This document shows, piece by piece, positions 2,200 to 41,967 of a stretch of DNA of 47,592 nucleotides. The DNA is taken from NCBI GenBank assembly GCA_032718475.1, contig JAUCBJ010003358.1, positions 1 through 47,592 on the forward strand, given 5' to 3'. Positions within the stretch are counted from its first letter, which is position 1. Each line of letters starts with the position of its first letter. A program made the translations under genes and the position numbers. The notes under the pieces were generated by a model. That model saw only the letters and a list, made by a program, of their open reading frames with translations. It was not told the origin of the DNA and ran no database searches. This DNA is from Nemertoderma westbladi. Its lineage: Eukaryota; Animalia; Xenacoelomorpha.

Positions 2200-2343
2200 A
2201 AGTCATGTATCTTGTAACTTGTTTTTAACCTTGTTTTTACTTAAATCTCTATTACTTATTTGCAGAGTGCTTTAATTGAAGCCTTTAAGCGCCTAGAACA
2301 AAATGTATAGGGAGCTATATAAATATTTTATTATTATTATTAG
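2200..2343 (+). mobile_element. 3' end of an L2/CR1-type LINE or a SINE with an L2-derived tail
   Basis: TAAGCGCCTAGAAC...AGGGAGCTATATAAAT followed by an (ATT)n tail resembles the conserved L2 3' stem-loop plus microsatellite tail. 5' boundary uncertain. Confidence 0.5.
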
Positions 2344-2845
2344 GAGCCCGCTCAAAGAGCTGGGATAGTTACTGTCAGAAAAAATTGTCAGTGAGGGAGG
2401 GATATATAGTCTATCCATATGGAATTGCAGTTTCGTACACTTCCTGCCTAGCTTTTTTTATAAAATTTTGCAAGTACATTGTTTTGATGGTTCGTAATCG
2501 CGTTACAAAATTTCAGATCGATTCTATGTTTGGTATTCGATATATTTCGTTTTTTTGATATTATTATTTCGAGAAATTAAATGTATATAGAAATTCATTG
2601 ACTGCTGTGACAAATGAATACATAGAGAGTTGGTTTAGGGGCATTATTAAGCGGGCTTGCCCATTTGAATGCAGCCCTATTAATTAATTAACGGCCCTGT
2701 GCTTATAATAATTCAATCAGCTGGCCTACCATTTATCATCAGCGAGTAATAGATATTCCTATAGAATTCACTGGGAAGAGATATTCAGCTGACCGGGTAA
2801 TACATTATAAACAGTTGATGTTTGATTACTGTCTGTGATAGTGTG

Positions 2846-9397: not shown

Positions 9398-10088
9398 CAA
9401 CTACTACTACTAGGATCGGCATGCTGCATTGCATCTGCATTTTTAAGAATGCTGTGCCGGCTTGTTGCGCCGCCACAACTCCCTATCACCCATGACAATT
9501 GCTAGATCATCCGCATTTTCAAGGCCAGTGTCCTTTAAGATGCGTCTCAAGAAAGTCATGGGATGTCCACCATGCTAATTCACTCCATGAGGCTGCCAAA
9601 GTTCAAGATTATGCACTGGCTTGTCCTCACGGCGAAAGCAAAGTCCTGCAAAGCAGAGGCGGCTTTGTTCTAGTGTCAAGCTTAGGGGAACCAATGAGAC
9701 ACCTCCAATGTTATATAGTGTCAGGTTGGAGATGTGTGCATTGTACTTGACACAGTGAACCCGGCGTAGCATTCTTGTGAATGTGCGATCCAGAGATTTG
9801 GTGTCCTCAGATGTTAGAGCACAGTATGGACTCTCATAGAGGAGTACTGGAACTACTGCTGCTCTAAATAATCGGACCTTAAATTTCCGATTAATTCTAT
9901 GTGACTTCCATATCCTGGAAAGCCTATTCAAGGCTGCCCATGCCTTCCCCTTACGTATTATTTACATGATCCCACGTAACAGGCTCATGCTCAAGTAACA
10001 TGCTCAAGCATACCATCCTTTGAGCTTATGCTTCCGCCGGTCAGAGACTTGCTGAGGACTTTCAAAGTTAACTGTCAAAATTTTGGTC
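9398..10088 (-). mobile_element. 5'-truncated RTE-type LINE, copy 2 (degraded)
   Basis: Reverse-complement match to 3839-4550, (CTA)n tail at about 9398-9413, TSD ATGTACCCTA (9388-9397) / ATGTACCGTA (10089-10098) with one mismatch. Internal indels. Confidence 0.92.
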
Positions 10089-14269: not shown

Positions 14270-15335
14270 AGTTCGATTTGAGGCATACAATCACACACAG
14301 TCAAAAATGGTCATTTGCACTCACATACAACCACAAACGAACACATACACTACAGTACACATACAACCACAAACGATCACATACACTCAAATACAATCAC
14401 ATACAGCCACAAACGATCACATACACTCAAATACAATCACATACAGTACAGTACACATACAACAACAAACGATCACATACACTCAAATACAATCACATAC
14501 AATACAGTACACATACAACCACAAACGATCACATACACTCAAATACAATCACATACAACCACAAACGATCACATACACTCAAATACAATCACATACAGCA
14601 CAGTACACATACAATCACCTGCTTGTGGTCAAAATGTTATATTAGATCACAAAATATTAATTACATTGTAGATTCCAGTCCCCACATTGAACAACTGCAC
14701 CCATACTACAACGTGTGTTTGGAATGTTATATTAACTGTATGGAAAAGGGGACACTTGAAACTATCGCATTATACTGGGGTCGGTGAAATTTTCAAAACT
14801 CAAACACAAATTTACACACGTATTTGACAGGTTTGGGTGGAACAGGGGACATCGCCGAAATGATCTGAAATTTTCAGAATCCATTAATTTTAGTACGTAG
14901 ATTTCATTTTTGATATCTTTTCATTCCTGGGACGTCCCCGGATTGTAGATCGTCCCCGGTTTGTGGCTGTGTATTCATGCAATTGTCCCCTGTTTGAACC
15001 GGTTCACCTACACTCAAATACAATCAGATACAACCATAAATGATCACATACACTCAAATACAATCACATACAGTACAGTACACATACAACCACAAACGGT
15101 CACATACACTCAAATACAATCACATACAGTACAGTACACATACAACCACAAACGATCACATACACTCAAATACAATCACATACAGTACAGTACACATACA
15201 ACCACAAACGATCACATACTGTCTAATTTTAATGATTCATTACGATTTGGAACATATATTGATTATAGCTTTGATATCGTATCACTCAACTACAGTAATT
15301 GGCAATCTTTATCCCTATTGTTGCTGTACTGTGGT
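14270..15335 (+). repeat. Minisatellite-bearing dispersed element, copy A (40/57-bp units), interrupted by an unrelated ~380-bp insert
   Basis: Units CACATACAACCACAAACGATCACATACACTCAAATACAAT with or without CACATACAGTACAGTA. Non-repetitive ends are shared with the inverted copy at 17430-19085. Insert at about 14620-15003. Confidence 0.85.
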
Positions 15336-17429: not shown

Positions 17430-19085
17430 GTATCGCAGTAGTCCAGCAATAATAGGGATAAACACAGACAATTAGTTGAGCGAAAAGATATAACAAATAA
17501 TCAATATATGATCGAAATCGCAATGAATAATTAAAATTAGACTGTATGTGATCGTTTGTGGTTGTATGTGATTGTTTGTGGTTGTATGTGATTGTATTTG
17601 AGTGTATGTGATCGTTTGTGATTGTATGTGATTGATTTGAGTGTATGTGATCGTTTATGGTTGTATGTGTAGGCCTACGGTATTTTATGTGATTGTATTT
17701 GAGTGTATGTGATCGTTTGTGGTTGTATGTGATTGTATTTGAGTGTATGTGATCGTTTGTGGTTGTATGTGATTGTATTTGAGTGTATGTGAACGTATGT
17801 GATTGCATTTGAGTGTATGTGATCGTTTGTGGTTGTATGTGTACTGTATTGTAAGTGATTGTAATTGAGTGTATGTGATTGTTTGTGGTTGTATGTGATT
17901 GTATTTGAGTGTATGTGATCGCTTGTGATTGTATTTGAGTGTATGTGATCGTTTGTGGTTGTATGTGATTGTATTTGAGTGTATGGGACCGTTTGTTGTT
18001 GTATGTGTACTATACTGTATGTGATTGTAATTGAGTGTATGTGATCGTTTGTGGTCGTATGTGATTGTATTTGAGTGTATGTGATCGTTTGTGGTTGTAT
18101 GTGTACTGTACTGTATGCGATTGTATTTGAGTGTATGTGATCGTTTGTGGTTGTATGTGTACTGTACTGTATGTGATTGTATTTGAGTGTATATGATCGT
18201 TTGTGGTTGTATGTGATTGTATTTGAGTGTATGTGATAGTTTGTGGTTGTATGTGTACTGTACTGTATGTGATTGTATTTGAGTGTATGTGATCGTTTAT
18301 AGTTGTATGTGATTGTATTTGTATGTATTTAATCGTTTGTGGTTGTATATGTACTGTACTGTATGTGATTGTATTTGAGTGTATGTGACCGTTTGTTGTT
18401 GTATGTGTACTATACTGTATGTGATTGTAATTGACTGTATGTGATCGTTTGTGGTTGTATGTGATTGTATTTGAGTGTATATGATCGTTTGTGGTTGTAT
18501 GTGATTGTATTTGAGTGTATGTGATAGTTTGTGGTTGTATGTGTACTGTACTGTATGTGATTGTATTTGAGTGTATGTGATCGTTTATAGTTGTCTGTGA
18601 TTGTATTTGAATGTATGTAATCGTTTGTGGTTGTATATGTACTGTACTGTATGTGATTGTATTTGAGTGTATGTGACCGTTTGTTGTTGTATGTGTACTA
18701 TACTGTATGTGATTGTAATTGAGTGTATGTGATCGTTTGTGGTTGAATGTGATTGTATTTGAGTGTATGTGATCGTTTGTGGTTGTATGTGATTGTATTT
18801 GAGTGTATGTGATCGTTTGTGGTTGTATGTGTACTGTACTGTATGTGATTGTATTTGAGTGTATGTGATCGTTTCTGGTTGTATGTGTACTGTACTGTAT
18901 GTGATTGTATTTGAGTGTATGTGATCGTTTGTGGTTATATGTGATTGTATTTGAGTGTATGTGATAGTTTGTGGTTGTATGTGTACTGTACTGTATGTAA
19001 TTGTATTTGAATGTATGTGATCGTTTGTGGTAGTATGTGAGCGAGCGTATTTAGCCATTTTTGACTGTATGCCTCGAATCGAACC
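17430..19085 (-). repeat. Minisatellite-bearing dispersed element, copy B (inverted; array about 1.5 kb)
   Basis: Reverse complement of the copy A units over 17543-19040. End CCATTTTTGACTGTATGCCTCGAATCGAAC matches the copy A start GTTCGATTTGAGGCATAC...CAGTCAAAAATGG. Confidence 0.88.
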
Positions 19086-19228
19086 AGCCCATAAGTGATT
19101 TATAACCTAAGTTTAGAGTACAGGTATGACATGTATTCAAGCATTATGAATCACATGATGTGACAAATATTTAATTGGTCAAGATAATGAAACTGTAGAT
19201 ATTAATTTTCTTATTAGACACACAGTGT

Positions 19229-19453
19229 TGTGTTGCGTAGATCATATATTGCATATATTAAGTATCAGTATTATTATGATATTAGATCCGCACACCAGTA
19301 TTCTGCATTACATACAACAAACAGCAGCAGTATCAAGCAGTATCGCAGTACTGCAGTACAGCAGTATCAACTCACTACCAGCAGACCGGTACAGTCCCGA
19401 ACTGACAATACTGATTACATGAACTTAGATCCTTTGAGCTTTCACTCACTACA
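19229..19453 (-). repeat. 3' LTR (225 bp)
   Basis: Identical by eye to 23574-23832 except that it has one fewer copy of a 34-bp unit. TG...CA termini. Confidence 0.97.
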
Positions 19454-19470
19454 TCCCCCCCAGTTTTTTC
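19454..19470 (-). promoter_or_regulatory. Polypurine tract
   Basis: Minus strand GAAAAAACTGGGGGGGA immediately before the 3' LTR. Confidence 0.85.
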
Positions 19471-19597
19471 AAAACTTTAATTTAATACAATGAACTGTAA
19501 GTGTGTCATAGTTTCAGTTTTAGTTTGGTAGTCATGCGCTGCCATATAATAATGTTCTCAGGTTAGTTCGAAATAATTCGCAAAGTGCCACTATTAT

Positions 19598-22500
19598 TCA
19601 ACACTCTTCAATATACCTTGAGGGGGGGCGTACTTGACGACCGATGCGCGTTGTTGGCCTAGCAGTTACCTCATCATGAGAGTCGTCGTCTTCGTCTTTA
19701 TACTCGCTATCATCGTCATCACTGCCATTGTCGCCTTCCATACTATGATATATGTCACGTTCTTGTTGGTAGATGTTTTCTGGTTCACATGTTTTTCTGA
19801 CATCGTTAAAATGTCTTCTTACTCCTTTAATTACCACTGCCCAGTTGTCCACCGAGTCTACACGAACTGGACCTTTCCACTGTCTCCAGCACTTCACATG
19901 GCTACCCGGTTTAACATATACCCAATCACCAGGTGCTATTTTGTGCATTGGCACTGTTGTGTCTACTGCAATTTCAACAGGGGTGATTCCAGGTAACTTT
20001 GATCTACGTTCTGCGAGACCTCAGAAACACGTCTCAGCTGGTGTCGTGTCTTTGTTTCTCCCTTTGGTGTTATTAAACCAGAAAGCGGCCTGTTCCAGTG
20101 TTTTACCAGATCGCGCAGCCCAGGCCTTACAGTTCGATGTACTCGTTCAACAGGATTGCCCTGAGGTCGATAGGCACATGCATATGACAACTGTACTTCC
20201 CACAACTTCATGAATTCTTGCAAGTCTGTGCTCCAAAACGCTGGGCCATGGTCCGCAATAACTTGATCAGGGGGGCCCATTTCTGTAAAAATCTGTTGCA
20301 GTTGCCGGATTGCACTGGCTGCAGTTAGATTCGCAACACGCCAAATTATTGTATAGCTCGTTGCACAATCTTTGACAGAGAGATAATGGCGAGTTCCATA
20401 TTCGACAAAGTCTATTGATAATCGGGTCCATGCATGCTTTACTTTCGTGGAACCTGCGTCCCAATGAAGAGGACTTGGGTCGATGCTGCTGCATTGGGGA
20501 CACTGATGACAGACCTCTCTAATGAGTTTTTTATTCACTTGGCTGTTCAATTCACGATCTTGAGCACACAATTCGGTTGTGCGCTCCACTCCAGGATGAA
20601 ATATTTGATGTATCTCAGTAACTCTATCACGTATATCAGTAACAGCTGCAACGTCTGCTTGTATAGTTGTATCTTCATCGCATTCTTCAACATTTTGTTT
20701 TAGCCATGTCTTGGGAACCCGAGTCATCGGATCTGCTTTGTTTTCATTCGTACCGATTAGATAAGGATGAAAAGTGAGCTCGAACTCTTTGATTGTGGTT
20801 GCTAACAGGTCTAGACGTCTAGTGATTAATTTTCTCGACTGTCCCTTAGTTTTAATGCGATGAGAATCAGTAACCACGGCCTTTAACCAACTGAATGCCA
20901 CCTTCGAATCGACCATCAATTCTATTTCTTTTAGGCCCCAATCTATAGCTAAATTCAAGCCGTCAATAGCTGCGTCAAGCTCAGCAATGTTGATGTGACT
21001 GGAATCGTTTGCCTTCTGTAACCAAGCAGAGTCTTCCACTGTTGTACCACCAATCTCGATAATGATTCCTTTTGCGATTGAACTTGCATCAGTCCACACC
21101 ACACCACGGGTTGTAGACTGAACCACCCACTCTCCTGTCAATGGATCATCAGTTATTAAGCGTTCCACTGTTTCTTTCACCATTACCTGTATGCTGTCGT
21201 CCACTACACAATCCCATGGAATACCACTGCAGCATCTTTGTAGCCACGCACAAGCGGGCCGTAACCATCCTGATATCGGGTAGTGGCCAATCAATTTACC
21301 ACACAACACATATAAATCACGTCGCGTTATTCTATCAAGAACTTTACCAGGTATCTCAGAGTCTCGATTCCATAACAACCTACCATTTCGATCCTCGGTG
21401 ATACGTAATCCAAGTACTCGACTACCATTTTGAATTGGTTCTGATGGTTTTGTTATCAACCCATATTCAGCTAAGTGCATGCGAACTTTATCTGCCGAAA
21501 TACGATCTGTATTAATATAAATGTCATCCCGAAAATTAGCACTAGAGTTACCCACTTCCTCATTCTCAGCCAAAACTGTCTCGACCACACGGTCCATGAT
21601 TTTTGGAGCAGGTGCCATCCCATATCCCATAACCGTCACGATGTACCGACGCCCCTTATAGACCACAGTTTGAAAGGTTCGCAAGGATTCACTTATTTTA
21701 ATTTGCAGATACGCCCAGCGTAAATCTACAATAACAGTTTTACTTCCCATACGGCGCCAGATACGCATTTTCTCCCCGCACACCGCAGCTTCACGTCCTG
21801 GAGAGTTTTCAATATAACGATTAAGTTCTCTACAGTCCAATATAGGACGAATTCGCTCCTTCTTCGGCTCATGCTTATCCATGATCGGTAATGTTCCCTT
21901 CACTTCTCCATGTTGAAGTGGATCATACTCAATAATCCAACCTTGATCGATCCACTCTTCCATTGCTTTCTCAAACATATCTTGATGATCGGGACGAATT
22001 TTATACTGGGTCACGGTGTTATGCAGCGTTGGAATCTGTCCATTTTTCCATTTAAACTCAGCTATCCAGTCCTTACCATCGAATGTGCAGTGGAAATCCG
22101 ACTCATTCAATTCGATTATAGGTTCAACTCTTGATTTAACAGCAGTCAATGGTGGTGAGTTTACAACGACATTACTCATCTTGGCAGCTCCGCCTACCAT
22201 TTCGTTCAGCGCACACTGGTTGGTTTTTCCATGAAGCACCTTTATCAACATAATTGGACTCATCTGCTTTATGATATTGTACCCCAAAATTACCATCTCT
22301 CCATTCAGTATTTTTAAAATAACTAGAAAAGTGTTTGAAAGTTGTTGCACAATACCATCTATTTTATCAATGTTTATAACAATTTCGCCAATCACCTGGG
22401 TCTCTGACTCGCCATCTAACATTACAATATTATGTTTCCTGTTTTCTTCAGAATAATATTTTACGCAGATATTTCTCTGTTTACACCATTGATAGGATAC

Positions 22501-22657
22501 CAGAGATTTGCTACAGCCAGAATCTATAAGCGTGTTTACTTTAAACTCCCTCCCTCCCTGTTTCATCCCGAACCTGCATGCCAACAACTGGGACAATGTT
22601 CTCTAATTTTGCGAGGAACCGTCCGTTGGCTGCAACGGCCCTTGCCTCCCGTTTCCC
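19598..22657 (-). pseudogene. pol: Pol polyprotein (aspartic protease, RT, RNase H, integrase), frameshifted
   Basis: PR LIDSGC; RT RPILDCRELN, VDLRWAYLQI, MGYGMAPAP, NFRDDIYI; RNase H VWTDAS, HINIAELDA, MVDS, NKADPMTR; IN H-H-C-C, LSIDF, IADHG, VERVHRT; C-terminal WKGP and RQVRPPSRY. Lesions: inferred extra GGGA at 22547-22558, 1-nt loss at about 20127, TGA at 20021-20023. Confidence 0.93.
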
Positions 22658-23525
22658 GACTGAGCATCACCATTACCCTGCCATCTATTTCCCAGGACTC
22701 CAGAATTTCCACCAGTAGTGTTATTACGTCCACCACCACGACAACCCCTAGCAACATGACCCGGTTCACCACATTTAAAGCAAGCATCGCTATTTCCTCC
22801 CCTTGCTCCTCGAATACTGTTTGGATAATCACGTGCAAAATGTCCAAATTGCTCGCACTGAAAGCATCGTCCATCGTTACCATTGCCACGCTCACTGCTA
22901 CCATACCCATAATTCGCACCGGCACCGCGACCAACGCCCGATCCTCCTCGCATTCCACTTCTCCCGCGATTTTGCCAACCGCGAATTCCCAAAGCACCAA
23001 ATCTCTCGACAGTGACGTGTTGTTCCGCTAACATTCGTTCGCTTGACCTAATAGCTCCTCGATTGCAACCTTACCTGCCATCGCCTTAACTTCGCTACGT
23101 ATGCTATCTGGGAGTCCATTCACGAATTGAACTGCAAGTATGTCACTCGCACATTTACTTTTTGTATCCTCGGTAAACAAAGATATCAAACGCCTTAAGT
23201 CAGCTAAATATGTGTCAGCTGTTTCGTTTCCCAGCAACGTTCGATTCTTAAACTTTTCGTATGCTGTATAAGCGGTATCTGCGAACGCCTCGATCAACTT
23301 GCGACGAATCACATCAATATCACTTTTCTCAGTTTCTGTTAATTGGCTAATTACATCGTGAGCTGCCCCTTTCAAGCATAATCGCAAGTAGGTCGCTCGA
23401 CTCTCTTCGTTTAGTTTCGATTCAATCATTAATATTTCAAAAATATCATTAAACGTGTTTAACCATGCACACGGGTCGCTCGTTCCGTCGTACTTGCTGA
23501 CGTAGTCTGATATCTTAGGCGCCAT
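22603..23525 (-). pseudogene. gag: Gag with two CCHC zinc knuckles, split by a 1-nt frameshift at about 23038
   Basis: YDGTSDPCAWL...LCLKGAA...QFVNGLP capsid-like region (23525-23028). RG-rich region with CFQCEQFGHFARDY (last Cys replaced by Tyr) and CFKCGEPGHVARGC in the next frame. Confidence 0.9.
22651..22657 (-). promoter_or_regulatory. Candidate -1 ribosomal frameshift slippery site G GGA AAC
   Basis: X XXY YYZ heptamer in the correct gag phase, followed by hairpin CCGTTG-CAGC-CAACGG. The -1 frame is open past the gag stop. Confidence 0.6.
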
Positions 23526-23561
23526 TATAATAATACTCGGTACCGGTATAGCACTAACAAG

Positions 23562-23573
23562 GGCCGGTTAGCT
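23562..23573 (-). promoter_or_regulatory. Atypical primer-binding site complementary to nt 1-12 of tRNA-Ile(AAU)
   Basis: Element-sense AGCTAACCGGCC directly abuts the 5' LTR. Its complement GGCCGGTTAGCT is the 5' end of animal tRNA-Ile(AAU) as I recall it (GGCCGGTTAGCTCAGTTGG...). Confidence 0.8.
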
Positions 23574-23832
23574 TGTGTTGCGTAGATCATATATTGCATA
23601 TATTAAGTATCAGTATTATTATGATATTAGATCCGCACACCAGTATTCTGCATTACATACAACAAACAGCAGCAGTATCAAGCAGTATCGCAGTACTGCA
23701 GTACAGCAGTATCAAGCAGTATCGCAGTACTGCAGTACAGCAGTATCAACTCACTACCAGCAGACCGGTACAGTCCCGAACTGACAATACTGATTACATG
23801 AACTTAGATCCTTTGAGCTTTCACTCACTACA
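23574..23832 (-). repeat. 5' LTR (259 bp)
   Basis: Matches the 3' LTR and carries a tandem duplication of AGCAGTATCGCAGTACTGCAGTACAGCAGTATCA (34 bp). Confidence 0.97.
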
Positions 23833-24448
23833 AGTGTGTACAGTGTGATCACAATCTAATGGTTGTTTTCCATTCCAAACATAGGAAGCTGCCTTTTACT
23901 GTCATGGAAATTAATTATTTTCTAATATAATGTAAGTATAATTTAATTGTACTTAAAAATTATTCAGCTGGTGGCGGCTAAGTTGTTAAATTTATAAAAT
24001 GCAATTTTTGTAATAAAGTCGTTCAATTTTAATTTGTTTCCCATAACTGAGCCTCGTGCTGCGCGAAGGCCCCACGAACGTGTATAGTTACTGCTTACTG
24101 CTTAAAATGATACAGTACCGTTATACAGTAGCACATAAATGAATGATTATATCAGTAATAACTTCTGAATATGGATGATGGGATGAAAAGAAATACATTA
24201 AGAAAGATAATTAGCATTACCTTAACTTCATTATTAATAGATGGGCGTCTATTATGTGAGTAATTTGTTTAGTTTCGTACCTCATTACTGAGTTTATAAT
24301 TTGTCAAGGTGGTCGATGATAGAGTAGCTTAGCTTATATGTTACTTAGCTAGTTCTCGCATTGCAATTAAATTAATGTAATGTAACCTACAAGGAAACAA
24401 AATGTTGGGCAACACAATATTGAAATTGATGCATATAGAATCGTAATG

Positions 24449-27400
24449 AATGATCGATTCTGAAAGAAATGATAGATGCTGAAAGAAATGATAGATACTG
24501 AAAGAAATGATAGATACTGAAAGAAATGATAGATACTGAAAGAAATGATAGATACTGAAAGAAATGATAGATACTGAAAGAAATTATAGATACTGAAAGA
24601 AATGATAGATACTGAAAGAAATGATAGATACTGAAAGAAATGATAGATACTGAAAGAAATTATAGATACTGAAAGAAATTATAGATACTGAAAGAAATGA
24701 TAGATACTGAAAGAAATGATAGATACTGAAAGAAATGATAGATACTGAAAGAAATGATAGATACTGAAAGAAATTATAGATACTGAAAGAAATGATAGAT
24801 ACTGAAAGAAATGATAGATACTGAAAGAAATGATAGATACTGAAAGAAATTATAGATACTGAAAGAAATGATAGATACTGAAAGAAATGATAGATACTGA
24901 AAGAAATTATAGATACTGAAAGAAATTATAGATACTGAAAGAAATCATAGATACTGAAAGAAATGATAGATACTGAAAGAAATGATAGATACTGAAAGAA
25001 ATGATAGATACTGAAAGAAATGATTGATACTGAAATAAATGATAGATACTGAAAGAAATGATAGATACTGAAACAAATGATAGATACTGAAACAAATGAT
25101 AGATACTGAAACAAATGATAGATACTGAAAGAAATGATTGATACTGAAAGAAATGATAGATACTGAAACAAATGATAGATACTGAAACAAATGATAGATA
25201 CTGAAACAAATGATAGATACTGAAACAAATGATAGATACTGAAAGAAATGATTGATACTGAAAGAAATGATAGATACTGAAAGAAATGATAGATACTGAA
25301 AGAAATGATAGATACTGAAACAAATGATAGATACTGAAACAAATGATAGATACTGAAACAAATGATAGATACTGAAACAAATGATAGATACTGAAAGAAA
25401 TGATAGATACTGAAAGAAATGATAGATACTGAAAGAAATGATAGATACTGAAACAAATGATAGATACTGAAACAAATGATAGATACTGAAACAAATGATA
25501 GATACTGAAACAAATGATAGATACTGAAACAAATGATAGATACTGAAACAAATGATAGATACTGAAAGAAATGATAGATACTGAAAGAAATGATAGATAC
25601 TGAAACAAATGATAGATACTGAAACAAATGATAGATACTGAAACAAATGATAGATACTGAAAGAAATGATTGATACTGAAAGAAATGATAGATACTGAAA
25701 CAAATGATAGATACTGAAACAAATGATAGATACTGAAACAAATGATAGATACTGAAACAAATGATAGATACTGAAACAAATGATAGATACTGAAAGAAAT
25801 GATTGATACTGAAAGAAATGATAGATACTGAAACAAATGATAGATACTGAAACAAATGATAGATACTGAAACAAATGATAGATACTGAAACAAATGATAG
25901 ATACTGAAAGAAATGATAGATACTGAAACAAATGATAGATACTGAAACAAATGATAGATACTGAAACAAATGATAGATACTGAAAGAAATGATTGATACT
26001 GAAAGAAATGATAGATACTGAAACAAATGATAGATACTGAAACAAATGATAGATACTGAAACAAATGATAGATACTGAAACAAATGATAGATACTGAAAG
26101 AAATGATTGATACTGAAAGAAATGATAGATACTGAAAGAAATGATAGATACTGAAAGAAATGATAGATACTGAAACAAATGATAGATACTGAAACAAATG
26201 ATAGATACTGAAACAAATGATAGATACTGAAACAAATGATAGATACTGAAAGAAATGATAGATACTGAAAGAAATGATAGATACTGAAAGAAATGATAGA
26301 TACTGAAAGAAATGATAGATACTGAAACAAATGATAGATACTGAAACAAATGATAGATACTGAAACAAATGATAGATACTGAAACAAATGATAGATACTG
26401 AAACAAATGATAGATACTGAAACAAATGATAGATACTGAAACAAATGATAGATACTGAAACAAATGATAGATACTGAAACAAATGATAGATACTGAAACA
26501 AATGATAGATACTGAAACAAATGATAGATACTGAAACAAATGATAGATACTGAAACAAATGATAGATACTGAAACAAATGATAGATACTGAAACAAATGG
26601 TAGATACTGAAACAAATGATAGATACTGAAACAAATGATAGATACTGAAACAAATGATAGATACTGAAACAAATGATAGATACTGAAACAAATGATAGAT
26701 ACTGAAACAAATGATAGATACTGAAACAAATGATAGATACTGAAACAAATGATAGATACTGAAACAAATGATAGATACTGAAACAAATGATAGATACTGA
26801 AACAAATGTAGATACTGAAACAAATGATAGATACTGAAACAAATGATAGATACTGAAACAAATGATAGATACTGAAACAAATGATAGATACTGAAACAAA
26901 TGATAGATACTGAAACAAATGATAGATACTGAAACAAATGATAGATACTGAAACAAATGATAGATACTGAAACAAATGATAGATACTGAAACAAATGATA
27001 GATACTGAAACAAATGATAGATACTGAAACAAATGATAGATACTGAAACAAATGATAGATACTGAAACAAATGATAGATACTGAAACAAATGATAGATAC
27101 TGAAACAAATGATAGATACTGAAACAAATGATAGATACTGAAACAAATGATAGATACTGAAACAAATGATAGATACTGAAACAAATGATAGATACTGAAA
27201 CAAATGATAGATACTGAAACAAATGATAGATACTGAAACAAATGATAGATACTGAAACAAATGATAGATACTGAAACAAATGATAGATACTGAAACAAAT
27301 GATAGATACTGAAACAAATGATAGATACTGAAACAAATGATAGATACTGAAACAAATGATAGATACTGAAACAAATGATAGATACTGAAACAAATGATAG

Positions 27401-30400
27401 ATACTGAAACAAATGATAGATACTGAAACAAATGATAGATACTGAAACAAATGATAGATACTGAAACAAATGATAGATACTGAAACAAATGATAGATACT
27501 GAAACAAATGATAGATACTGAAACAAATGATAGATACTGAAACAAATGATAGATACTGAAACAAATGATAGATACTGAAACAAATGATAGATACTGAAAC
27601 AAATGATAGATACTGAAACAAATGATAGATACTGAAACAAATGATAGATACTGAAACAAATGATAGATACTGAAACAAATGATAGATACTGAAACAAATG
27701 ATAGATACTGAAACAAATGATAGATACTGAAACAAATGATAGATACTGAAACAAATGATAGATACTGAAACAAATGATAGATACTGAAACAAATGATAGA
27801 TACTGAAACAAATGATAGATACTGAAACAAATGATAGATACTGAAACAAATGATAGATACTGAAACAAATGATAGATACTGAAACAAATGATAGATACTG
27901 AAACAAATGATAGATACTGAAACAAATGGTAGATACTGAAACAAATGATAGATACTGAAACAAATGATAGATACTGAAACAAATGATAGATACTGAAACA
28001 AATGATAGATACTGAAACAAATGATAGATACTGAAACAAATGATAGATACTGAAACAAATGATAGATACTGAAACAAATGATAGATACTGAAACAAATGA
28101 TAGATACTGAAAGAAATGATAGATACTGAAAGAAATGATAGATACTGAAACAAATGATAGATACTGAAACAAATGATAGATACTGAAACAAATGATAGAT
28201 ACTGAAAGAAATGATTGATACTGAAAGAAATGATAGATACTGAAACAAATGATAGATACTGAAACAAATGATAGATACTGAAACAAATGATAGATACTGA
28301 AACAAATGATAGATACTGAAACAAATGATAGATACTGAAAGAAATGATTGATACTGAAAGAAATGATAGATACTGAAACAAATGATAGATACTGAAACAA
28401 ATGATAGATACTGAAACAAATGATAGATACTGAAACAAATGATAGATACTGAAAGAAATGATAGATACTGAAACAAATGATAGATACTGAAACAAATGAT
28501 AGATACTGAAACAAATGATAGATACTGAAAGAAATGATAGATACTGAAAGAAATGATAGATACTGAAACAAATGATAGATACTGAAACAAATGATAGATA
28601 CTGAAACAAATGATAGATACTGAAACAAATGATAGATACTGAAAGAAATGATTGATACTGAAAGAAATGATAGATACTGAAAGAAATGATAGATACTGAA
28701 AGAAATGATAGATACTGAAACAAATGATAGATACTGAAACAAATGATAGATACTGAAACAAATGATAGATACTGAAACAAATGATAGATACTGAAAGAAA
28801 TGATAGATACTGAAAGAAATGATAGATACTGAAAGAAATGATAGATACTGAAAGAAATGATAGATACTGAAACAAATGATAGATACTGAAACAAATGATA
28901 GATACTGAAACAAATGATAGATACTGAAACAAATGATAGATACTGAAACAAATGATAGATACTGAAACAAATGATAGATACTGAAACAAATGATAGATAC
29001 TGAAACAAATGATAGATACTGAAACAAATGATAGATACTGAAACAAATGATAGATACTGAAACAAATGATAGATACTGAAACAAATGATAGATACTGAAA
29101 CAAATGATAGATACTGAAACAAATGATAGATACTGAAACAAATGATAGATACTGAAACAAATGATAGATACTGAAACAAATGATAGATACTGAAACAAAT
29201 GATAGATACTGAAACAAATGATAGATACTGAAACAAATGATAGATACTGAAACAAATGATAGATACTGAAACAAATGATAGATACTGAAACAAATGATAG
29301 ATACTGAAACAAATGATAGATACTGAAACAAATGATAGATACTGAAACAAATGATAGATACTGAAACAAATGATAGATACTGAAACAAATGATAGATACT
29401 GAAACAAATGATAGATACTGAAACAAATGATAGATACTGAAACAAATGATAGATACTGAAACAAATGATAGATACTGAAACAAATGATAGATACTGAAAC
29501 AAATGATAGATACTGAAACAAATGATAGATACTGAAACAAATGATAGATACTGAAACAAATGATAGATACTGAAACAAATGATAGATACTGAAACAAATG
29601 ATAGATACTGAAAGAAATGATAGATACTGAAAGAAATGATAGATACTGAAACAAATGATAGATACTGAAACAAATGATAGATACTGAAACAAATGATAGA
29701 TACTGAAACAAATGATAGATACTGAAACAAATGATAGATACTGAAACAAATGATAGATACTGAAACAAATGATAGATACTGAAACAAATGATAGATACTG
29801 AAACAAATGATAGATACTGAAACAAATGATAGATACTGAAACAAATGATAGATACTGAAACAAATGATAGATACTGAAACAAATGATAGATACTGAAACA
29901 AATGATAGATACTGAAACAAATGATAGATACTGAAACAAATGATAGATACTGAAACAAATGATAGATACTGAAACAAATGATAGATACTGAAACAAATGA
30001 TAGATACTGAAAGAAATGATTGATACTGAAATAAATGATAGATACTGAAAGAAATTATAGATACTGAAAGAAATGATAGATACTGAAACAAATGATAGAT
30101 ACTGAAACAAATGATAGATACTGAAAGAAATGATTGATACTGAAATAAATGATAGATACTGAAAGAAATCATAGATACTGAAAGAAATTATAGATACTGA
30201 AAGAAATGATAGATACTGAAAGAAATGATAGATACTGAAACAAATGATAGATACTGAAACAAATGATAGATACTGAAACAAATGATAGATACTGAAACAA
30301 ATGATAGATACTGAAACAAATGATAGATACTGAAACAAATGATAGATACTGAAACAAATGATAGATACTGAAACAAATGATAGATACTGAAAGAAATGAT

Positions 30401-33400
30401 AGATACTGAAAGAAATGATAGATACTGAAACAAATGATAGATACTGAAACAAATGATAGATACTGAAACAAATGATAGATACTGAAACAAATGATAGATA
30501 CTGAAACAAATGATAGATACTGAAACAAATGATAGATACTGAAACAAATGATAGATACTGAAACAAATGATAGATACTGAAACAAATGATAGATACTGAA
30601 ACAAATGATAGATACTGAAACAAATGATAGATACTGAAACAAATGATAGATACTGAAACAAATGATAGATACTGAAACAAATGATAGATACTGAAACAAA
30701 TGATAGATACTGAAACAAATGATAGATACTGAAACAAATGATAGATACTGAAACAAATGATAGATACTGAAAGAAATTATAGATACTGAAAGAAATGATA
30801 GATACTGAAAGAAATGATAGATACTGAAACAAATGATAGATACTGAAACAAATGATAGATACTGAAACAAATGATAGATACTGAAACAAATGATAGATAC
30901 TGAAAGAAATTATAGATACTGAAAGAAATGATAGATACTGAAAGAAATGATTGATACTGAAATAAATGATAGATACTGAAACAAATGATAGATACTGAAA
31001 CAAATGATAGATACTGAAACAAATGATAGATACTGAAACAAATGATAGATACTGAAACAAATGATAGATACTGAAACAAATGATAGATACTGAAACAAAT
31101 GATAGATACTGAAACAAATGATAGATACTGAAACAAATGATAGATACTGAAACAAATGATAGATACTGAAACAAATGATAGATACTGAAACAAATGATAG
31201 ATACTGAAAGAAATGATTGATACTGAAATAAATGATAGATACTGAAAGAAATTATAGATACTGAAAGAAATGATAGATACTGAAACAAATGATAGATACT
31301 GAAACAAATGATAGATACTGAAAGAAATGATAGATACTGAAACAAATGATAGATACTGAAAGAAATGATAGATACTGAAAGAAATGATAGATACTGAAAG
31401 AAATGATAGATACTGAAAGAAATGATAGATACTGAAACAAATGATAGATACTGAAACAAATGATAGATACTGAAACAAATGATAGATACTGAAACAAATG
31501 ATAGATACTGAAACAAATGATAGATACTGAAACAAATGATAGATACTGAAACAAATGATAGATACTGAAACAAATGATAGATACTGAAACAAATGATAGA
31601 TACTGAAACAAATGATAGATACTGAAACAAATGATAGATACTGAAACAAATGATAGATACTGAAACAAATGATAGATACTGAAACAAATGATAGATACTG
31701 AAACAAATGATAGATACTGAAACAAATGATAGATACTGAAAGAAATGATAGATACTGAAACAAATGATAGATACTGAAACAAATGATAGATACTGAAACA
31801 AATGATAGATACTGAAACAAATGATAGATACTGAAACAAATGATAGATACTGAAACAAATGATAGATACTGAAACAAATGATAGATACTGAAACAAATGA
31901 TAGATACTGAAACAAATGATAGATACTGAAACAAATGATAGATACTGAAACAAATGATAGATACTGAAACAAATGATAGATACTGAAACAAATGATAGAT
32001 ACTGAAACAAATGATAGATACTGAAACAAATGATAGATACTGAAACAAATGATAGATACTGAAACAAATGATAGATACTGAAACAAATGATAGATACTGA
32101 AAGAAATGATTGATACTGAAATAAATGATAGATACTGAAAGAAATTATAGATACTGAAAGAAATGATAGATACTGAAACAAATGATAGATACTGAAACAA
32201 ATGATAGATACTGAAAGAAATGATAGATACTGAAACAAATGATAGATACTGAAAGAAATGATAGATACTGAAAGAAATGATAGATACTGAAAGAAATGAT
32301 AGATACTGAAAGAAATGATAGATACTGAAACAAATGATAGATACTGAAACAAATGATAGATACTGAAACAAATGATAGATACTGAAACAAATGATAGATA
32401 CTGAAACAAATGATAGATACTGAAACAAATGATAGATACTGAAACAAATGATAGATACTGAAACAAATGATAGATACTGAAACAAATGATAGATACTGAA
32501 ACAAATGATAGATACTGAAACAAATGATAGATACTGAAAGAAATGATAGATACTGAAACAAATGATAGATACTGAAACAAATGATAGATACTGAAACAAA
32601 TGATAGATACTGAAACAAATGATAGATACTGAAACAAATGATAGATACTGAAACAAATGATAGATACTGAAACAAATGATAGATACTGAAACAAATGATA
32701 GATACTGAAACAAATGATAGATACTGAAACAAATGATAGATACTGAAACAAATGATAGATACTGAAACAAATGATAGATACTGAAACAAATGATAGATAC
32801 TGAAACAAATGATAGATACTGAAACAAATGATAGATACTGAAACAAATGATAGATACTGAAACAAATGATAGATACTGAAACAAATGATAGATACTGAAA
32901 GAAATGATTGATACTGAAATAAATGATAGATACTGAAAGAAATGATAGATACTGAAAGAAATGATAGATACTGAAACAAATGATAGATACTGAAACAAAT
33001 GATAGATACTGAAAGAAATGATAGATACTGAAACAAATGATAGATACTGAAAGAAATGATAGATACTGAAAGAAATGATAGATACTGAAAGAAATGATAG
33101 ATACTGAAAGAAATGATAGATACTGAAACAAATGATAGATACTGAAACAAATGATAGATACTGAAACAAATGATAGATACTGAAACAAATGATAGATACT
33201 GAAACAAATGATAGATACTGAAACAAATGATAGATACTGAAACAAATGATAGATACTGAAACAAATGATAGATACTGAAACAAATGATAGATACTGAAAC
33301 AAATGATAGATACTGAAACAAATGATAGATACTGAAACAAATGATAGATACTGAAACAAATGATAGATACTGAAACAAATGATAGATACTGAAACAAATG

Positions 33401-36400
33401 ATAGATACTGAAACAAATGATAGATACTGAAACAAATGATAGATACTGAAACAAATGATAGATACTGAAACAAATGATAGATACTGAAACAAATGATAGA
33501 TACTGAAACAAATGATAGATACTGAAACAAATGATAGATACTGAAACAAATGATAGATACTGAAACAAATGATAGATACTGAAACAAATGATAGATACTG
33601 AAACAAATGATAGATACTGAAACAAATGATAGATACTGAAACAAATGATAGATACTGAAACAAATGATAGATACTGAAACAAATGATAGATACTGAAACA
33701 AATGATAGATACTGAAACAAATGATAGATACTGAAACAAATGATAGATACTGAAACAAATGATAGATACTGAAACAAATGATAGATACTGAAACAAATGA
33801 TAGATACTGAAACAAATGATAGATACTGAAACAAATGATAGATACTGAAACAAATGATAGATACTGAAAGAAATGATTGATACTGAAATAAATGATAGAT
33901 ACTGAAAGAAATTATAGATACTGAAAGAAATGATAGATACTGAAACAAATGATAGATACTGAAACAAATGATAGATACTGAAAGAAATGATTGATACTGA
34001 AATAAATGATAGATACTGAAAGAAATTATAGATACTGAAAGAAATGATAGATACTGAAAGAAATGATAGATACTGAAACAAATGATAGATACTGAAACAA
34101 ATGATAGATACTGAAAGAAATGATAGATACTGAAAGAAATGATAGATACTGAAACAAATGATAGATACTGAAACAAATGATAGATACTGAAACAAATGAT
34201 AGATACTGAAACAAATGATAGATACTGAAAGAAATGATAGATACTGAAACAAATGATAGATACTGAAACAAATGATAGATACTGAAACAAATGATAGATA
34301 CTGAAACAAATGATAGATACTGAAACAAATGATAGATACTGAAACAAATGATAGATACTGAAAGAAATGATTGATACTGAAACAAATGATAGATACTGAA
34401 ACAAATGATAGATACTGAAAGAAATGATTGATACTGAAAGAAATGATAGATACTGAAACAAATGATAGATACTGAAACAAATGATAGATACTGAAACAAA
34501 TGATAGATACTGAAACAAATGATAGATACTGAAACAAATGATAGATACTGAAACAAATGATAGATACTGAAACAAATGATAGATACTGAAACAAATGATA
34601 GATACTGAAAGAAATGATTGATACTGAAAGAAATGATAGATACTGAAACAAATGATAGATACTGAAACAAATGATAGATACTGAAACAAATGATAGATAC
34701 TGAAACAAATGATAGATACTGAAAGAAATGATTGATACTGAAAGAAATGATAGATACTGAAAGAAATGATAGATACTGAAAGAAATGATAGATACTGAAA
34801 GAAATGATAGATACTGAAACAAATGATAGATACTGAAACAAATGATAGATACTGAAACAAATGATAGATACTGAAAGAAATGATAGATACTGAAAGAAAT
34901 GATAGATACTGAAAGAAATGATAGATACTGAAACAAATGATAGATACTGAAACAAATGATAGATACTGAAACAAATGATAGATACTGAAACAAATGATAG
35001 ATACTGAAACAAATGATAGATACTGAAACAAATGATAGATACTGAAACAAATGATAGATACTGAAACAAATGATAGATACTGAAACAAATGATAGATACT
35101 GAAACAAATGATAGATACTGAAACAAATGATAGATACTGAAACAAATGATAGATACTGAAACAAATGATAGATACTGAAACAAATGATAGATACTGAAAC
35201 AAATGATAGATACTGAAACAAATGATAGATACTGAAACAAATGATAGATACTGAAACAAATGATAGATACTGAAACAAATGATAGATACTGAAACAAATG
35301 ATAGATACTGAAACAAATGATAGATACTGAAACAAATGATAGATACTGAAACAAATGATAGATACTGAAACAAATGATAGATACTGAAACAAATGATAGA
35401 TACTGAAACAAATGATAGATACTGAAACAAATGATAGATACTGAAACAAATGATAGATACTGAAACAAATGATAGATACTGAAACAAATGATAGATACTG
35501 AAACAAATGATAGATACTGAAACAAATGATAGATACTGAAACAAATGATAGATACTGAAACAAATGATAGATACTGAAACAAATGATAGATACTGAAACA
35601 AATGATAGATACTGAAACAAATGATAGATACTGAAACAAATGATAGATACTGAAACAAATGATAGATACTGAAACAAATGATAGATACTGAAAGAAATGA
35701 TAGATACTGAAAGAAATGATAGATACTGAAACAAATGATAGATACTGAAACAAATGATAGATACTGAAACAAATGATAGATACTGAAACAAATGATAGAT
35801 ACTGAAACAAATGATAGATACTGAAACAAATGATAGATACTGAAACAAATGATAGATACTGAAACAAATGATAGATACTGAAACAAATGATAGATACTGA
35901 AACAAATGATAGATACTGAAACAAATGATAGATACTGAAACAAATGATAGATACTGAAACAAATGATAGATACTGAAACAAATGATAGATACTGAAACAA
36001 ATGATAGATACTGAAACAAATGATAGATACTGAAACAAATGATAGATACTGAAACAAATGATAGATACTGAAACAAATGATAGATACTGAAAGAAATGAT
36101 TGATACTGAAATAAATGATAGATACTGAAAGAAATTATAGATACTGAAAGAAATGATAGATACTGAAACAAATGATAGATACTGAAACAAATGATAGATA
36201 CTGAAAGAAATGATTGATACTGAAATAAATGATAGATACTGAAACAAATGATAGATACTGAAAGAAATGATAGATACTGAAAGAAATGATAGATACTGAA
36301 ACAAATGATAGATACTGAAACAAATGATAGATACTGAAACAAATGATACATACTGAAACAAATGATAGATACTGAAACAAATGATAGATACTGAAACAAA

Positions 36401-39400
36401 TGATAGATACTGAAACAAATGATAGATACTGAAACAAATGATAGATACTGAAACAAATGATAGATACTGAAACAAATGATAGATACTGAAACAAATGATA
36501 GATACTGAAACAAATGATAGATACTGAAACAAATGATAGATACTGAAACAAATGATAGATACTGAAACAAATGATAGATACTGAAACAAATGATAGATAC
36601 TGAAACAAATGATAGATACTGAAACAAATGATAGATACTGAAACAAATGATAGATACTGAAAGAAATGATTGATACTGAAATAAATGATAGATACTGAAA
36701 GAAATTATAGATACTGAAAGAAATGATAGATACTGAAACAAATGATAGATACTGAAACAAATGATAGATACTGAAAGAAATGATAGATACTGAAACAAAT
36801 GATAGATACTGAAAGAAATGATAGATACTGAAAGAAATGATAGATACTGAAAGAAATGATAGATACTGAAAGAAATGATAGATACTGAAACAAATGATAG
36901 ATACTGAAACAAATGATAGATACTGAAACAAATGATAGATACTGAAACAAATGATAGATACTGAAACAAATGATAGATACTGAAACAAATGATAGATACT
37001 GAAACAAATGATAGATACTGAAACAAATGATAGATACTGAAACAAATGATAGATACTGAAACAAATGATAGATACTGAAACAAATGATAGATACTGAAAC
37101 AAATGATAGATACTGAAACAAATGATAGATACTGAAACAAATGATAGATACTGAAACAAATGGTAGATACTGAAACAAATGATAGATACTGAAACAAATG
37201 ATAGATACTGAAACAAATGATAGATACTGAAACAAATGATAGATACTGAAACAAATGATAGATACTGAAACAAATGATAGATACTGAAACAAATGATAGA
37301 TACTGAAACAAATGATAGATACTGAAACAAATGATAGATACTGAAACAAATGATAGATACTGAAACAAATGGTAGATACTGAAACAAATGATAGATACTG
37401 AAACAAATGATAGATACTGAAACAAATGATAGATACTGAAACAAATGATAGATACTGAAACAAATGATAGATACTGAAACAAATGATAGATACTGAAACA
37501 AATGATAGATACTGAAACAAATGATAGATACTGAAACAAATGATAGATACTGAAACAAATGATAGATACTGAAACAAATGATAGATACTGAAACAAATGA
37601 TAGATACTGAAACAAATGATAGATACTGAAAGAAATGATAGATACTGAAAGAAATGATAGATACTGAAACAAATGATAGATACTGAAACAAATGATAGAT
37701 ACTGAAACAAATGATAGATACTGAAACAAATGATAGATACTGAAACAAATGATAGATACTGAAACAAATGATAGATACTGAAACAAATGATAGATACTGA
37801 AACAAATGATAGATACTGAAACAAATGATAGATACTGAAACAAATGATAGATACTGAAACAAATGATAGATACTGAAACAAATGATAGATACTGAAACAA
37901 ATGATAGATACTGAAACAAATGATAGATACTGAAACAAATGATAGATACTGAAACAAATGATAGATACTGAAACAAATGATAGATACTGAAACAAATGAT
38001 AGATACTGAAACAAATGATAGATACTGAAAGAAATGATTGATACTGAAATAAATGATAGATACTGAAAGAAATTATAGATACTGAAAGAAATGATAGATA
38101 CTGAAACAAATGATAGATACTGAAACAAATGATAGATACTGAAAGAAATGATTGATACTGAAATAAATGATAGATACTGAAAGAAATTATAGATACTGAA
38201 AGAAATGATAGATACTGAAACAAATGATAGATACTGAAACAAATGATAGATACTGAAAGAAATGATAGATACTGAAAGAAATGATAGATACTGAAACAAA
38301 TGATAGATACTGAAACAAATGATAGATACTGAAACAAATGATAGATACTGAAACAAATGATAGATACTGAAAGAAATGATAGATACTGAAACAAATGATA
38401 GATACTGAAACAAATGATAGATACTGAAACAAATGATAGATACTGAAACAAATGATAGATACTGAAACAAATGATAGATACTGAAACAAATGATAGATAC
38501 TGAAAGAAATGATTGATACTGAAACAAATGATAGATACTGAAAGAAATGATAGATACTGAAACAAATGATAGATACTGAAACAAATGATAGATACTGAAA
38601 CAAATGATAGATACTGAAAGAAATGATAGATACTGAAAGAAATGATAGATACTGAAACAAATGATAGATACTGAAAGAAATGATAGATACTGAAACAAAT
38701 GATAGATACTGAAACAAATGATAGATACTGAAACAAATGATAGATACTGAAAGAAATGATAGATACTGAAAGAAATGATAGATACTGAAACAAATGATAG
38801 ATACTGAAAGAAATGATAGATACTGAAACAAATGATAGATACTGAAACAAATGATAGATACTGAAAGAAATGATAGATACTGAAACAAATGATAGATACT
38901 GAAACAAATGATAGATACTGAAACAAATGATAGATACTGAAACAAATGATAGATACTGAAACAAATGATAGATACTGAAACAAATGATAGATACTGAAAG
39001 AAATGATTGATACTGAAATAAATGATAGATACTGAAAGAAATTATAGATACTGAAAGAAATGATAGATACTGAAAGAAATTATAGATACTGAAAGAAATT
39101 ATAGATACTGAAAGAAATGATAGATACTGAAATAAATGATAGATACTGAAAGAAATGATAGATACTGAAAGAAATGATAGATACTGAAAGAAATTATAGA
39201 TACTGAAAGAAATCATAGATACTGAAAGAAATGATAGATACTGAAAGAAATGATAGATACTGAAAGAAATGATAGATACTGAAAGAAATGATTGATACTG
39301 AAATAAATGATAGATACTGAAAGAAATGATAGATACTGAAAGAAATGATAGATACTGAAAGAAATGATAGATACTGAAAGAAATGATAGATACTGAAAGA

Positions 39401-40994
39401 AATGATAGATACTGAAAGAAATGATAGATACTGAAAGAAATGATAGATACTGAAAGAAATGATAGATACTGAAAGAAATGATTGATACTGAAAGAAATGA
39501 TAGATACTGAAAGAAATGATAGATACTGAAAGAAATGATGAATACTGAAAGAAATGATAGATACTGAAAGAAATGATAGATACTGAAAGAAATTATAGAT
39601 ACTGAAAGAAATTATAGATACTGAAAGAAATGATAGATACTGAAAGAAATGATAGATACTGAAAGAAATGATAGATACTGAAAGAAATGATAGATACTGA
39701 AAGAAATGATAGATACTGAAAGAAATGATAGATACTGAAAGAAATGATAGATACTGAAAGAAATGATAGATACTGAAAGAAATGATAGATACTGAAAGAA
39801 ATGATAGATACTGAAAGAAATGATAGATACTGAAAGAAATGATAGATACTGAAAGAAATGATAGATACTGAAAGAAATGATAGATACTGAAAGAAATGAT
39901 AGATACTGAAAGAAATGATTGATACTGAAATAAATGATAGATACTGAAAGAAATGATAGATACTGAAAGAAATGATAGATACTGAAAGAAATGATAGATA
40001 CTGAAAGAAATGATAGATACTGAAACAAATGATAGATACTGAAACAAATGATAGATACTGAAAGAAATCATAGATACTGAAAGAAATGATAGATACTGAA
40101 AGAAATGATAGATACTGAAAGAAATGATAGATACTGAAAGAAATGATAGATACTGAAACAAATGATAGATACTGAAACAAATGATAGATACTGAAAGAAA
40201 TCATAGATACTGAAATAAATGATAGATACTGAAAGAAATGATAGATACTGAAAGAAATGATAGATACTGAAAGAAATGATAGATACTGAAAGAAATGATA
40301 GATACTGAAACAAATGATAGATACTGAAACAAATGATAGATACTGAAAGAAATCATAGATACTGAAAGAAATGATAGATACTGAAAGAAATGATAGATAC
40401 TGAAAGAAATGATAGATACTGAAAGAAATGATAGATACTGAAAGAAATGATTGATACTGAAATAAATGATAGATACTGAAAGAAATGATAGATACTGAAA
40501 GAAATGATAGATACTGAAAGAAATGATAGATACTGAAAGAAATGATAGATACTGAAACAAATGATAGATACTGAAACAAATGATAGATACTGAAAGAAAT
40601 CATAGATACTGAAAGAAATGATAGATACTGAAAGAAATGATAGATACTGAAAGAAATGATAGATACTGAAAGAAATGATAGATACTGAAACAAATGATAG
40701 ATACTGAAACAAATGATAGATACTGAAAGAAATCATAGATACTGAAATAAATGATAGATACTGAAAGAAATGATAGATACTGAAAGAAATGATAGATACT
40801 GAAAGAAATGATAGATACTGAAAGAAATGATAGATACTGAAACAAATGATAGATACTGAAACAAATGATAGATACTGAAAGAAATCATAGATACTGAAAG
40901 AAATGATAGATACTGAAAGAAATGATAGATACTGAAATAAATGATAGATACTGAAAGAAATGATAGATACTGAAAGAAATGATGAATACTGAAA
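24449..40994. repeat. 19-bp satellite array, about 16.5 kb (roughly 870 units), consensus GATAGATACTGAAA(C/G)AAAT
   Basis: Uninterrupted tandem array with a small set of recurrent single-base variants and one visible 18-bp unit near 26807. Confidence 0.99.
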
Positions 40995-41967
40995 TCAGAG
41001 CTTTTACTACCATCATATGGTGTATGTATGCAACTAGTATGGAGATTGCAGCATATACATATATTTATTACTTATTTATGCACCGAATTTATAATATTTA
41101 CTTATTTAATATAGGCCGTAACAGTCCGGAAAAGATAATTAATAATACTGTAGAACATCTGTATATGAAAATACCAAATATATTCTGATAATATGATAGA
41201 TTGTGTATGTGGTGCTTTACATAGCTACTTTACAACAAATTATTTAATTTAAGTTAATGTAGTATTCGTACTCTGTATTCAGTTCGTACGGTATTATATT
41301 TATAATGTAGATACAGTATTAGTGTGTAGGCCTACTCGACATGTTAACTGAGTGGATATTATATTATTTAAACAAAAGCCGATGCTATAAAGGAGGGGGG
41401 GGGGGGCTAATTAAATTAAACAAGAAAACATTGTTGTTGAGCAGCACCTGTTCGACTTACCGCTGACAATTGAAACAATAATAATAAAATTAAAGAGACC
41501 AATACGCCTACCCAAAATCTATATTTGTTATATATAAAGTTACTATTATTTTGAAACTTTAACATAATGATCTTTTACTATGAAAACTGAGTATGGATAG
41601 CTCCGTAAACCCGCTTGAAATATGATATGGCACAATAAAATATGGCACAATTTATGCAGGTCGGTTTTTTCAAAATTTGTAAACTTTTATAAATGTAAAA
41701 TACTGTATATTATGTTTTGAAGGATCAGTAATAATACGACCTAGTTGCAGTTCTCGGTCCAAGACTTTGGCAAAATGGACTTATGTAGGCTATCTTAAAT
41801 GAAAATTTCTGCACAAAATTATTGTTTTTGAAAACTTGAATGGGGGTTTAGTATGTTCGGGCTATATTGAGGGATTTAAATATTTTGTGATAGACAAAGG
41901 GTAGCAGTTACAAAATGGGTTCTGGAAGATCCAAATGGCTATGTTTTACAAAATCAATACGAGTAAG

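Follow-up and report, generated by a model that had tools for sequence, protein, structure and literature searches.

Three primer types for LTR retrotransposons, namely whole tRNA, half tRNA and self primer, are distinguished in the available portions of a plant-wide survey (PMC6317226), and the available text of a 2024 paper names 3′-end and anticodon-loop priming (PMC10886601). In half-tRNA priming, the primer-binding site (PBS) pairs with the anticodon arm of a tRNA that is cut in the anticodon stem, a route that these sources, as excerpted, report only for Ty1/copia lineages (PMC6317226, PMC10886601). In the self-priming retrotransposon Tf1, the RNA 5′ end pairs with the PBS and is cleaved by RNase H between bases 11 and 12, resulting in an 11-nt primer (PMC7175516). 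Here we describe an LTR retrotransposon with a candidate PBS complementary to nt 1–12 of a tRNA.

The window, i.e., the whole 47,592-nt stretch of Nemertoderma westbladi DNA that was analysed, contains an element of 4,604 bp on the minus strand (19229–23832) with the features of an Ortervirales-like LTR retrotransposon: two LTRs with TG..CA ends, a target-site duplication (TSD) and a polypurine tract (PPT). The 5′ LTR (259 bp; 23574–23832, minus strand) and the 3′ LTR (225 bp; 19229–19453, minus strand) are identical over 225/225 aligned bases, apart from one 34-bp duplicated unit. Equal copies of a 5-bp TSD lie to the left (19224–19228) and right (23833–23837), and the empty site is present in sequencing run X2, where a contig joins 19224 to 23834. 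Together, duplication and empty site fix the element ends independently of any motif. The PPT (19454–19461, minus strand) is flush with the 3′ LTR, and directly 5′ of it is a short predicted hairpin with a 6-bp stem (19462–19476, minus strand). The gag gene (22741–23525, minus strand) starts with an ATG at 23525, 36 nt after the PBS, and encodes a capsid-like part followed by two CX2CX4HX4C-type knuckles (22825–22866 and 22741–22782, minus strand), while pol (19963–22602, minus strand) encodes protease, RT, DUF7047, RNase H and integrase in this order, with the four acidic catalytic motifs of the RNase H present at about 21096–20725. In the window copy, the gag frame is broken near 23030, the pol frame is broken near 20130 and the RT active-site motif is altered. 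In three sequencing runs drawn from two studies, the element had a contig depth several-fold higher than its flanks, which suggests a multi-copy family. This host family is also young and insertion-polymorphic.

Runs X1, X2 and X3 contain a junction at which 1,177 bases of pol are missing (window 20586–21764); its short side spans only 22 bases, and it might perhaps represent an internally deleted form. A 19-bp satellite of about 870 copies (window about 24400–41100) adjoins the element, and a tandem repeat block occurs to its left in inverted copies (14300–15230 and 17750–19040). A separate RT gene, probably non-LTR, is represented by a 559-aa ORF with RVT_1 and DUF6451 at 2826–4505 on the plus strand, part of which has an inverted copy at 9485–9959. 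ARAGORN found no tRNA genes within the window.

The candidate PBS occupies positions 23562–23573 (minus strand). It reads GGCCGGTTAGCT on the plus strand and AGCTAACCGGCC on the element (minus) strand, and the 12-mer occurs once in the window. It directly adjoins the 5′ LTR without an intervening gap and lacks a TGG, as the preliminary description had stated and as the LTR boundaries, the TSD and the X2 empty site bear out. That description had further put forward a 12/12 match to the start of animal tRNA-Ile(AAU). The match itself holds, in that a T7 template for human tRNA-Ile(AAT), as printed in the accessible part of the source, carries the 12-mer directly after the promoter, making the window site complementary to nt 1–12 of this tRNA (PMC11724295). 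The assignment to a single isotype is less secure: in viral contigs, tRNA-Val, tRNA-Arg and further tRNAs begin with the same 12-mer, and a second, Lys-type allele exists among the host copies, so that the isotype is not certain for this host. Two further 12-mers found among relatives of the element equal human tRNA starts printed in the available excerpts, the commonest one being the start of tRNA-Phe(GAA) (PMC10505166) and another that of tRNA-Lys(CUU) (PMC12140204), bringing to three (Ile-AAT, Phe-GAA and Lys-CUU) the 12-mers with a printed human counterpart. Among ARAGORN tRNAs from viral contigs that held one of four tested 12-mers, the 12-mer began at position 1 in 55/56 and at position 2 in 1/56. 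By comparison with human and viral tRNAs, the window site can firmly be read as a tRNA start, of ambiguous isotype.

An alignment of 28 Pol sequences was used to fetch relatives from metagenome loci. From 302 pattern matches we obtained 153 relatives, the best 80 of which, from 78 loci, were analysed; Pol identity between the window element and related elements was about 35–40%. Among these best 80 of 153 relatives, the gag profile located a gag start with at least 80 nt upstream in 47/78 loci. All 47 carried the site, within 220 nt in 44 and at 220–285 nt in the other three, a rate that may be inflated, as the counting pattern was fitted after the variants had been seen and 42 ORFs located behind sites of this kind served to seed the gag profile. 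Random control windows contained such a 12-mer in 94 of 3,825 cases. Given this difference, the occurrence of a 12-mer beside the LTR that matches a tRNA start is confirmed and not due to chance, and the anticipated conservation of the site in related elements was indeed found. Loci missed by the first pattern held variant sites, and no other PBS types, upon checking by hand. Both LTR copies end inside the contig in five loci (L012, L018, L029, L040 and L054); the site is flush with the LTR CA in four of them, L029 additionally having a 5-bp TSD, and the fifth, L054 (LTR pair at 1969–4404, without gag and without PBS), is an internally deleted relative. In viral contigs, none of 40 pattern matches was confirmed as a relative.

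The 52 sites recovered among the best 80 of 153 relatives comprised 14 different 12-mers. Most relatives use Phe-type starts, Lys-type sites are also found, and the site thus varies among tRNA starts as had been anticipated; several 12-mers were without a match to a named eukaryotic tRNA, and three sites (L016, L075 and L076) look decayed. Information content was 1.5–1.85 bits at the highly conserved site positions 10–12, which face tRNA nt 1–3, and then fell to 0.38 and 0.08 at positions 13 and 14 (positions 1–5 were partly selected by the search pattern); the edge of conservation is nt 1 of the putative primer tRNA. A quick tree of the RT–RNase H region, with 51 rows and L065 left out as too short, required 20 site-type changes (minimum 13), from which the site appears to switch repeatedly and yet to stay a tRNA start. 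The window Pol sits on a long branch (1.32) in this tree, with a best identity of 45% in RT–RNase H.

Two junctions among the relatives deserve mention. At L008 (3233) and L077 (3425), what appears to be the 3′ LTR end continues into the first 5–7 bases of a PBS-like sequence before unrelated DNA begins, which could be a partly copied primer left behind, a truncated tandem copy or a misassembly. At the other end of the internal region, a hairpin with a stem of at least 5 bp was found directly 5′ of the PPT in 29/32 elements, with PPT positions picked by hand, as compared to 1,132/6,400 random windows. Its stem has many different sequences, and it is possibly a signal for PPT cleavage or for the start of the plus strand.

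Variation at the site was also apparent within the host. In each of runs X1 and X2, four 59-nt contigs of similar depth cover 23533–23591, with 0, 1, 1 and 2 differences. One variable site is 23563, opposite tRNA nt 2, and tRNA-Lys genes in 4 viral loci begin with the variant 12-mer; by these matches, the window family would have an Ile-type and a Lys-type allele. The second variable site is most readily placed at 23561 (minus strand), the base just past the PBS and opposite tRNA position −1, from contig ends at 23560 and 23564 and assuming a 31-mer assembly. For two sites separated by 2 nt, the presence of all four combinations implies recurrent change or recombination right there. This is the pattern that would be expected if a 12-nt primer were copied to its 5′ end and a non-templated base added at run-off. 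Across relatives, position 13 is A or C in 36/45 elements compared to a background of 44%, with a p-value that ignores relatedness; start-codon context or shared ancestry could also account for this bias. Copying of the primer into the PBS is known from retroviruses, whereas Ty1 and Ty3 do not inherit their PBS in this manner, according to the accessible part of the source (PMC7472051).

To what extent might the element provide its own primer? The preliminary description had pointed to a partial match in the LTR that would allow self-priming. Indeed, the window LTR contains an 8/12 match to the site, and a primer length of 11–12 nt together with the flush position resembles Tf1. However, the duplex between window LTR and site (−13.2 kcal/mol; shuffled, −11.1) falls far from that of a perfect 12-mer (−23.1), and in 46 elements with at least 150 nt upstream the best LTR–site pairing averaged 9.39/12 (including G-U pairs) as compared to 9.44 after shuffling, none of the 46 holding a full 12/12 self-complement in its LTR. 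In addition, identical sites occur beside unrelated LTRs. That the 5′ end of the element's transcript primes in the Tf1 manner and the likeness to tRNA is incidental is largely refuted by these data and scarcely credible. A self primer made by splicing was rejected as well, as the two halves required for such a guide were not found in the window LTR.

That the tRNA 5′ end serves as primer is, judging from these sites, highly probable. The proposal of the preliminary description, a 5′ tRNA fragment of 12 nt ending at nt 12, likewise draws strong support from the sites of the relatives. As for how this fragment might arise, we favor, with a probability of roughly 0.6, annealing of nt 1–12 of a host tRNA to the PBS and cleavage behind nt 12 by the RNase H of the element, leaving a 12-nt minus-strand primer. 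In this sequence of events, site bases 6–12 would act as a mimic of the 3′ acceptor strand, invading both the acceptor stem and the D-stem on its 5′ side, as nt 1–12 pair with the site. The tRNA would then be cut after nt 12, most likely in trans by the element's own RNase H, with the distance measured from the tRNA 5′ end, just as it is from the mRNA 5′ end in Tf1, and the resulting 12-nt fragment would prime minus-strand DNA. During plus-strand synthesis, all 12 nt of the primer would be copied up to its end, such that the site would be re-written from whichever tRNA had primed, and run-off would add a non-templated base just past the site. The primer most likely stops at nt 12, since tRNA nt 13–15 could not pair with the LTR end and both PBS and PPT are flush with the LTRs. 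That nt 12 is itself paired is suggested by L041 and L070, in which the LTR-proximal base is C: this change has a tRNA counterpart, as the corresponding 12-mer (G at nt 12) starts one ARAGORN tRNA, the only one found in 119 viral loci scanned. Throughout the lineage, the catalytic motifs of RNase H are conserved; together with the analogous Tf1 reaction, this favors RNase H acting in trans on the tRNA. Counting against this best explanation, a folded and modified tRNA must be opened for priming; moreover, cutting of RNA:RNA duplexes by RNase H is exceptional.

Opening of the whole tRNA would not be needed if a host nuclease cut it in the D-loop and the resulting 5′ fragment of 14–16 nt were annealed, trimmed to nt 12, healed at its 3′ end and extended by RT. 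The comparative evidence fits this main rival equally well, and a 15-nt human tRNA fragment beginning with the window 12-mer is on record; yet the known 5′ fragments seen in the available part of the same source end at nt 15 or later, not at nt 12 (PMC12025293). A second trimming to an exact length would moreover be needed in hosts as diverse as sponges, nematodes and arthropods, and only a few tRNA types, sharing one D-stem pattern, are used. We consider host processing unlikely, albeit deserving to be taken seriously. Far less probable is that no cut occurs and RT starts from the 2′-OH of tRNA nt 12, leaving the tRNA whole. Such branched priming would explain the flush edge and the fixed register without any nuclease, and retrons do prime in a branched fashion, from their own RNA; to our knowledge, no LTR element primes from a 2′-OH. 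Extra steps would be needed to remove the branched primer and leave clean TG..CA ends, and a linear primer explains the hypervariable base past nt 1 equally well.

The site could also serve something other than priming, namely the binding of a tRNA, a tRNA-derived SINE RNA or a small tRNA fragment for packaging, gag translation or silencing, with priming occurring otherwise. The gag ATG lies 0–40 nt after the site in most elements, and a Pol III transcript derived from a tRNA and sharing its 5′ end may conceivably exist. Yet the site is located exactly at the PBS position and no other PBS is present, nor would an element conserve a site kept for its silencing by the host. A role of this kind is improbable, if somewhat less so than branched priming, and RNase H cleavage of an annealed tRNA is the reading that we carry forward.

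To which lineage does the element belong? DUF7047 and RVT_3 were present in 28/28 Pol proteins (Pfam), and none of the 28 had a gypsy-, BEL- or copia-marker Pfam family at E ≤ 0.01, the gypsy-type RT_RNaseH, BEL and copia families being those that we take as superfamily markers. The domain order PR-RT-RH-IN is that of Ty3/Gypsy (Metaviridae), and the lineage motifs are absent from one published reference RT set, as sampled; no longer proteins suited as named outgroups turned up in a search for them. By Pfam markers, the lineage fits no superfamily and is apparently unclassified. For BEL/Pao (Belpaoviridae), we take the Peptidase_A17 and DUF1758–1759 families and a three-knuckle gag as markers; none of these Pfam families occurs in the pol alignment or in nine longer proteins, and there are mostly two knuckles, which speaks against this assignment. 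A DIRS-like identity is at odds with the presence of a DDE integrase and an aspartyl protease, in contrast to the tyrosine recombinase of DIRS, which lacks a protease. ESM Atlas returned RT-like clusters of no consistent family, and the PDB, searched by sequence and by fold, yielded retroviral and Ty3 matches that were all distant. The lineage has named protein members in Hydra vulgaris, Amphibalanus amphitrite, Trichuris suis and Nymphon striatum, with a longer form in Sycon ciliatum. At E ≤ 1e-30, a profile search yielded 2,116 representatives; as these may include distant groups, the lineage is at most of this size. Four longer Gag-Pol proteins of about 1,340–1,420 aa (P0124, P0128, P0136 and P0140, one of them from Sycon ciliatum) share PR-RT-DUF7047-RH with the lineage, but the profile integrase aligns to them only in a stretch of its own, so that their integrase may be a different one.

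A possible link to the little-studied Troyka group had also been raised. Like the window element, Troyka elements (Kuafuorterviruses) come from aquatic animals and have PR-RT-RH-IN order and short LTRs, and they lie outside Gypsy proper, as the window lineage may do too. Within the accessible text, however, Troyka LTRs end in CG..CG (PMC12440569) rather than TG..CA, the TSD is 3 bp and not the 5 bp of the window element and L029, the zinc finger is CX2CX8-10HX4C, as opposed to CX2CX4HX4C in the window element and most relatives, and the RT motif is IADD, VADD or LADD ([ILV]ADD; PMC11673190) as compared to Y/F-x-DD in relatives of the window element. Three Kuafu sequences of the supplement, read in sense, have TGG after the LTR (PMC11673190), and the available part of the Troyka paper makes no mention of a PBS or a tRNA (PMC12440569). 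With ends, TSD, zinc finger and RT motif all differing, and Kuafu elements having TGG-type sites, identity with Troyka/Kuafu was rejected for the features that could be compared, and the suggested link did not hold.

Taken as a whole, we tentatively propose, at slightly less than even odds, that DUF7047 elements constitute an unnamed superfamily, spread from sponges to nematodes and arthropods, in which the element's RNase H would act in trans on a host tRNA and make the primer by cutting 12 nt after the tRNA 5′ end, the PBS would be re-written in each cycle and a conserved hairpin would mark the PPT. If true, this would add a fourth primer type to whole tRNA, half tRNA and self primer as listed in the available part of the plant survey (PMC6317226). 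It would also link tRNA priming with self-priming of the Tf1 type and hint at a path by which one could have evolved from the other, and it predicts either that a retroelement enzyme cleaves tRNA at one set place in the D-stem or that very short 5′ tRNA fragments have a function. On the practical side, no member of the lineage will be recognized by PBS finders that seek TGG or 3′ tRNA ends; a 12-mer flush with the LTR CA is a simple diagnostic for it. Since the host family is young, multi-copy and insertion-polymorphic, the primer can be sought directly in the host.

How, then, does this site compare with the described priming systems? Full-text searches, with most subscription journals and Repbase Reports outside their scope, found, among the papers listed, no description of a PBS complementary to tRNA nt 1–12 and no mention of DUF7047. 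Canonical priming by tRNA 3′ ends (retroviruses and most Gypsy, BEL and Copia elements) likewise involves a host tRNA, a PBS after the 5′ LTR and switching between tRNA types, but uses a TGG site, whereas the window lineage has no TGG and would employ the opposite tRNA end. Half-tRNA priming (Drosophila copia, Ty5, Osser, Bryco, Bianca and fungal Copia/Helenus) shares the 5′ tRNA fragment with a new 3′ end; there, the anticodon arm pairs, in contrast to pairing of nt 1–12 and a putative cut in the D-stem here. Ty1/copia elements, moreover, encode integrase before RT, unlike the PR-RT-RH-IN order of the window lineage, and the copia half-tRNA type was rejected on this order, on RVT_1 without RVT_2 in all proteins (28/28 and 0/28, respectively) and on the lack of anticodon-arm pairing. 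Tf1 and Tf2 of S. pombe, Tj1 and the Tf1/sushi group at large share a very short primer from an RNA 5′ end and a PBS beside the LTR, as far as the accessible texts go (PMC7175516, PMC4600332). In that group, the PBS complement lies in the element's own 5′ LTR and the primer is made by RNase H cleavage, while in the window lineage the complement lies at tRNA 5′ ends and is 12 nt long, Pol is without gypsy-type RNase H Pfam families and cleavage is putative, the catalytic motifs being present. The site is thus apparently a lineage-defining, previously undescribed variant of tRNA-fragment priming.
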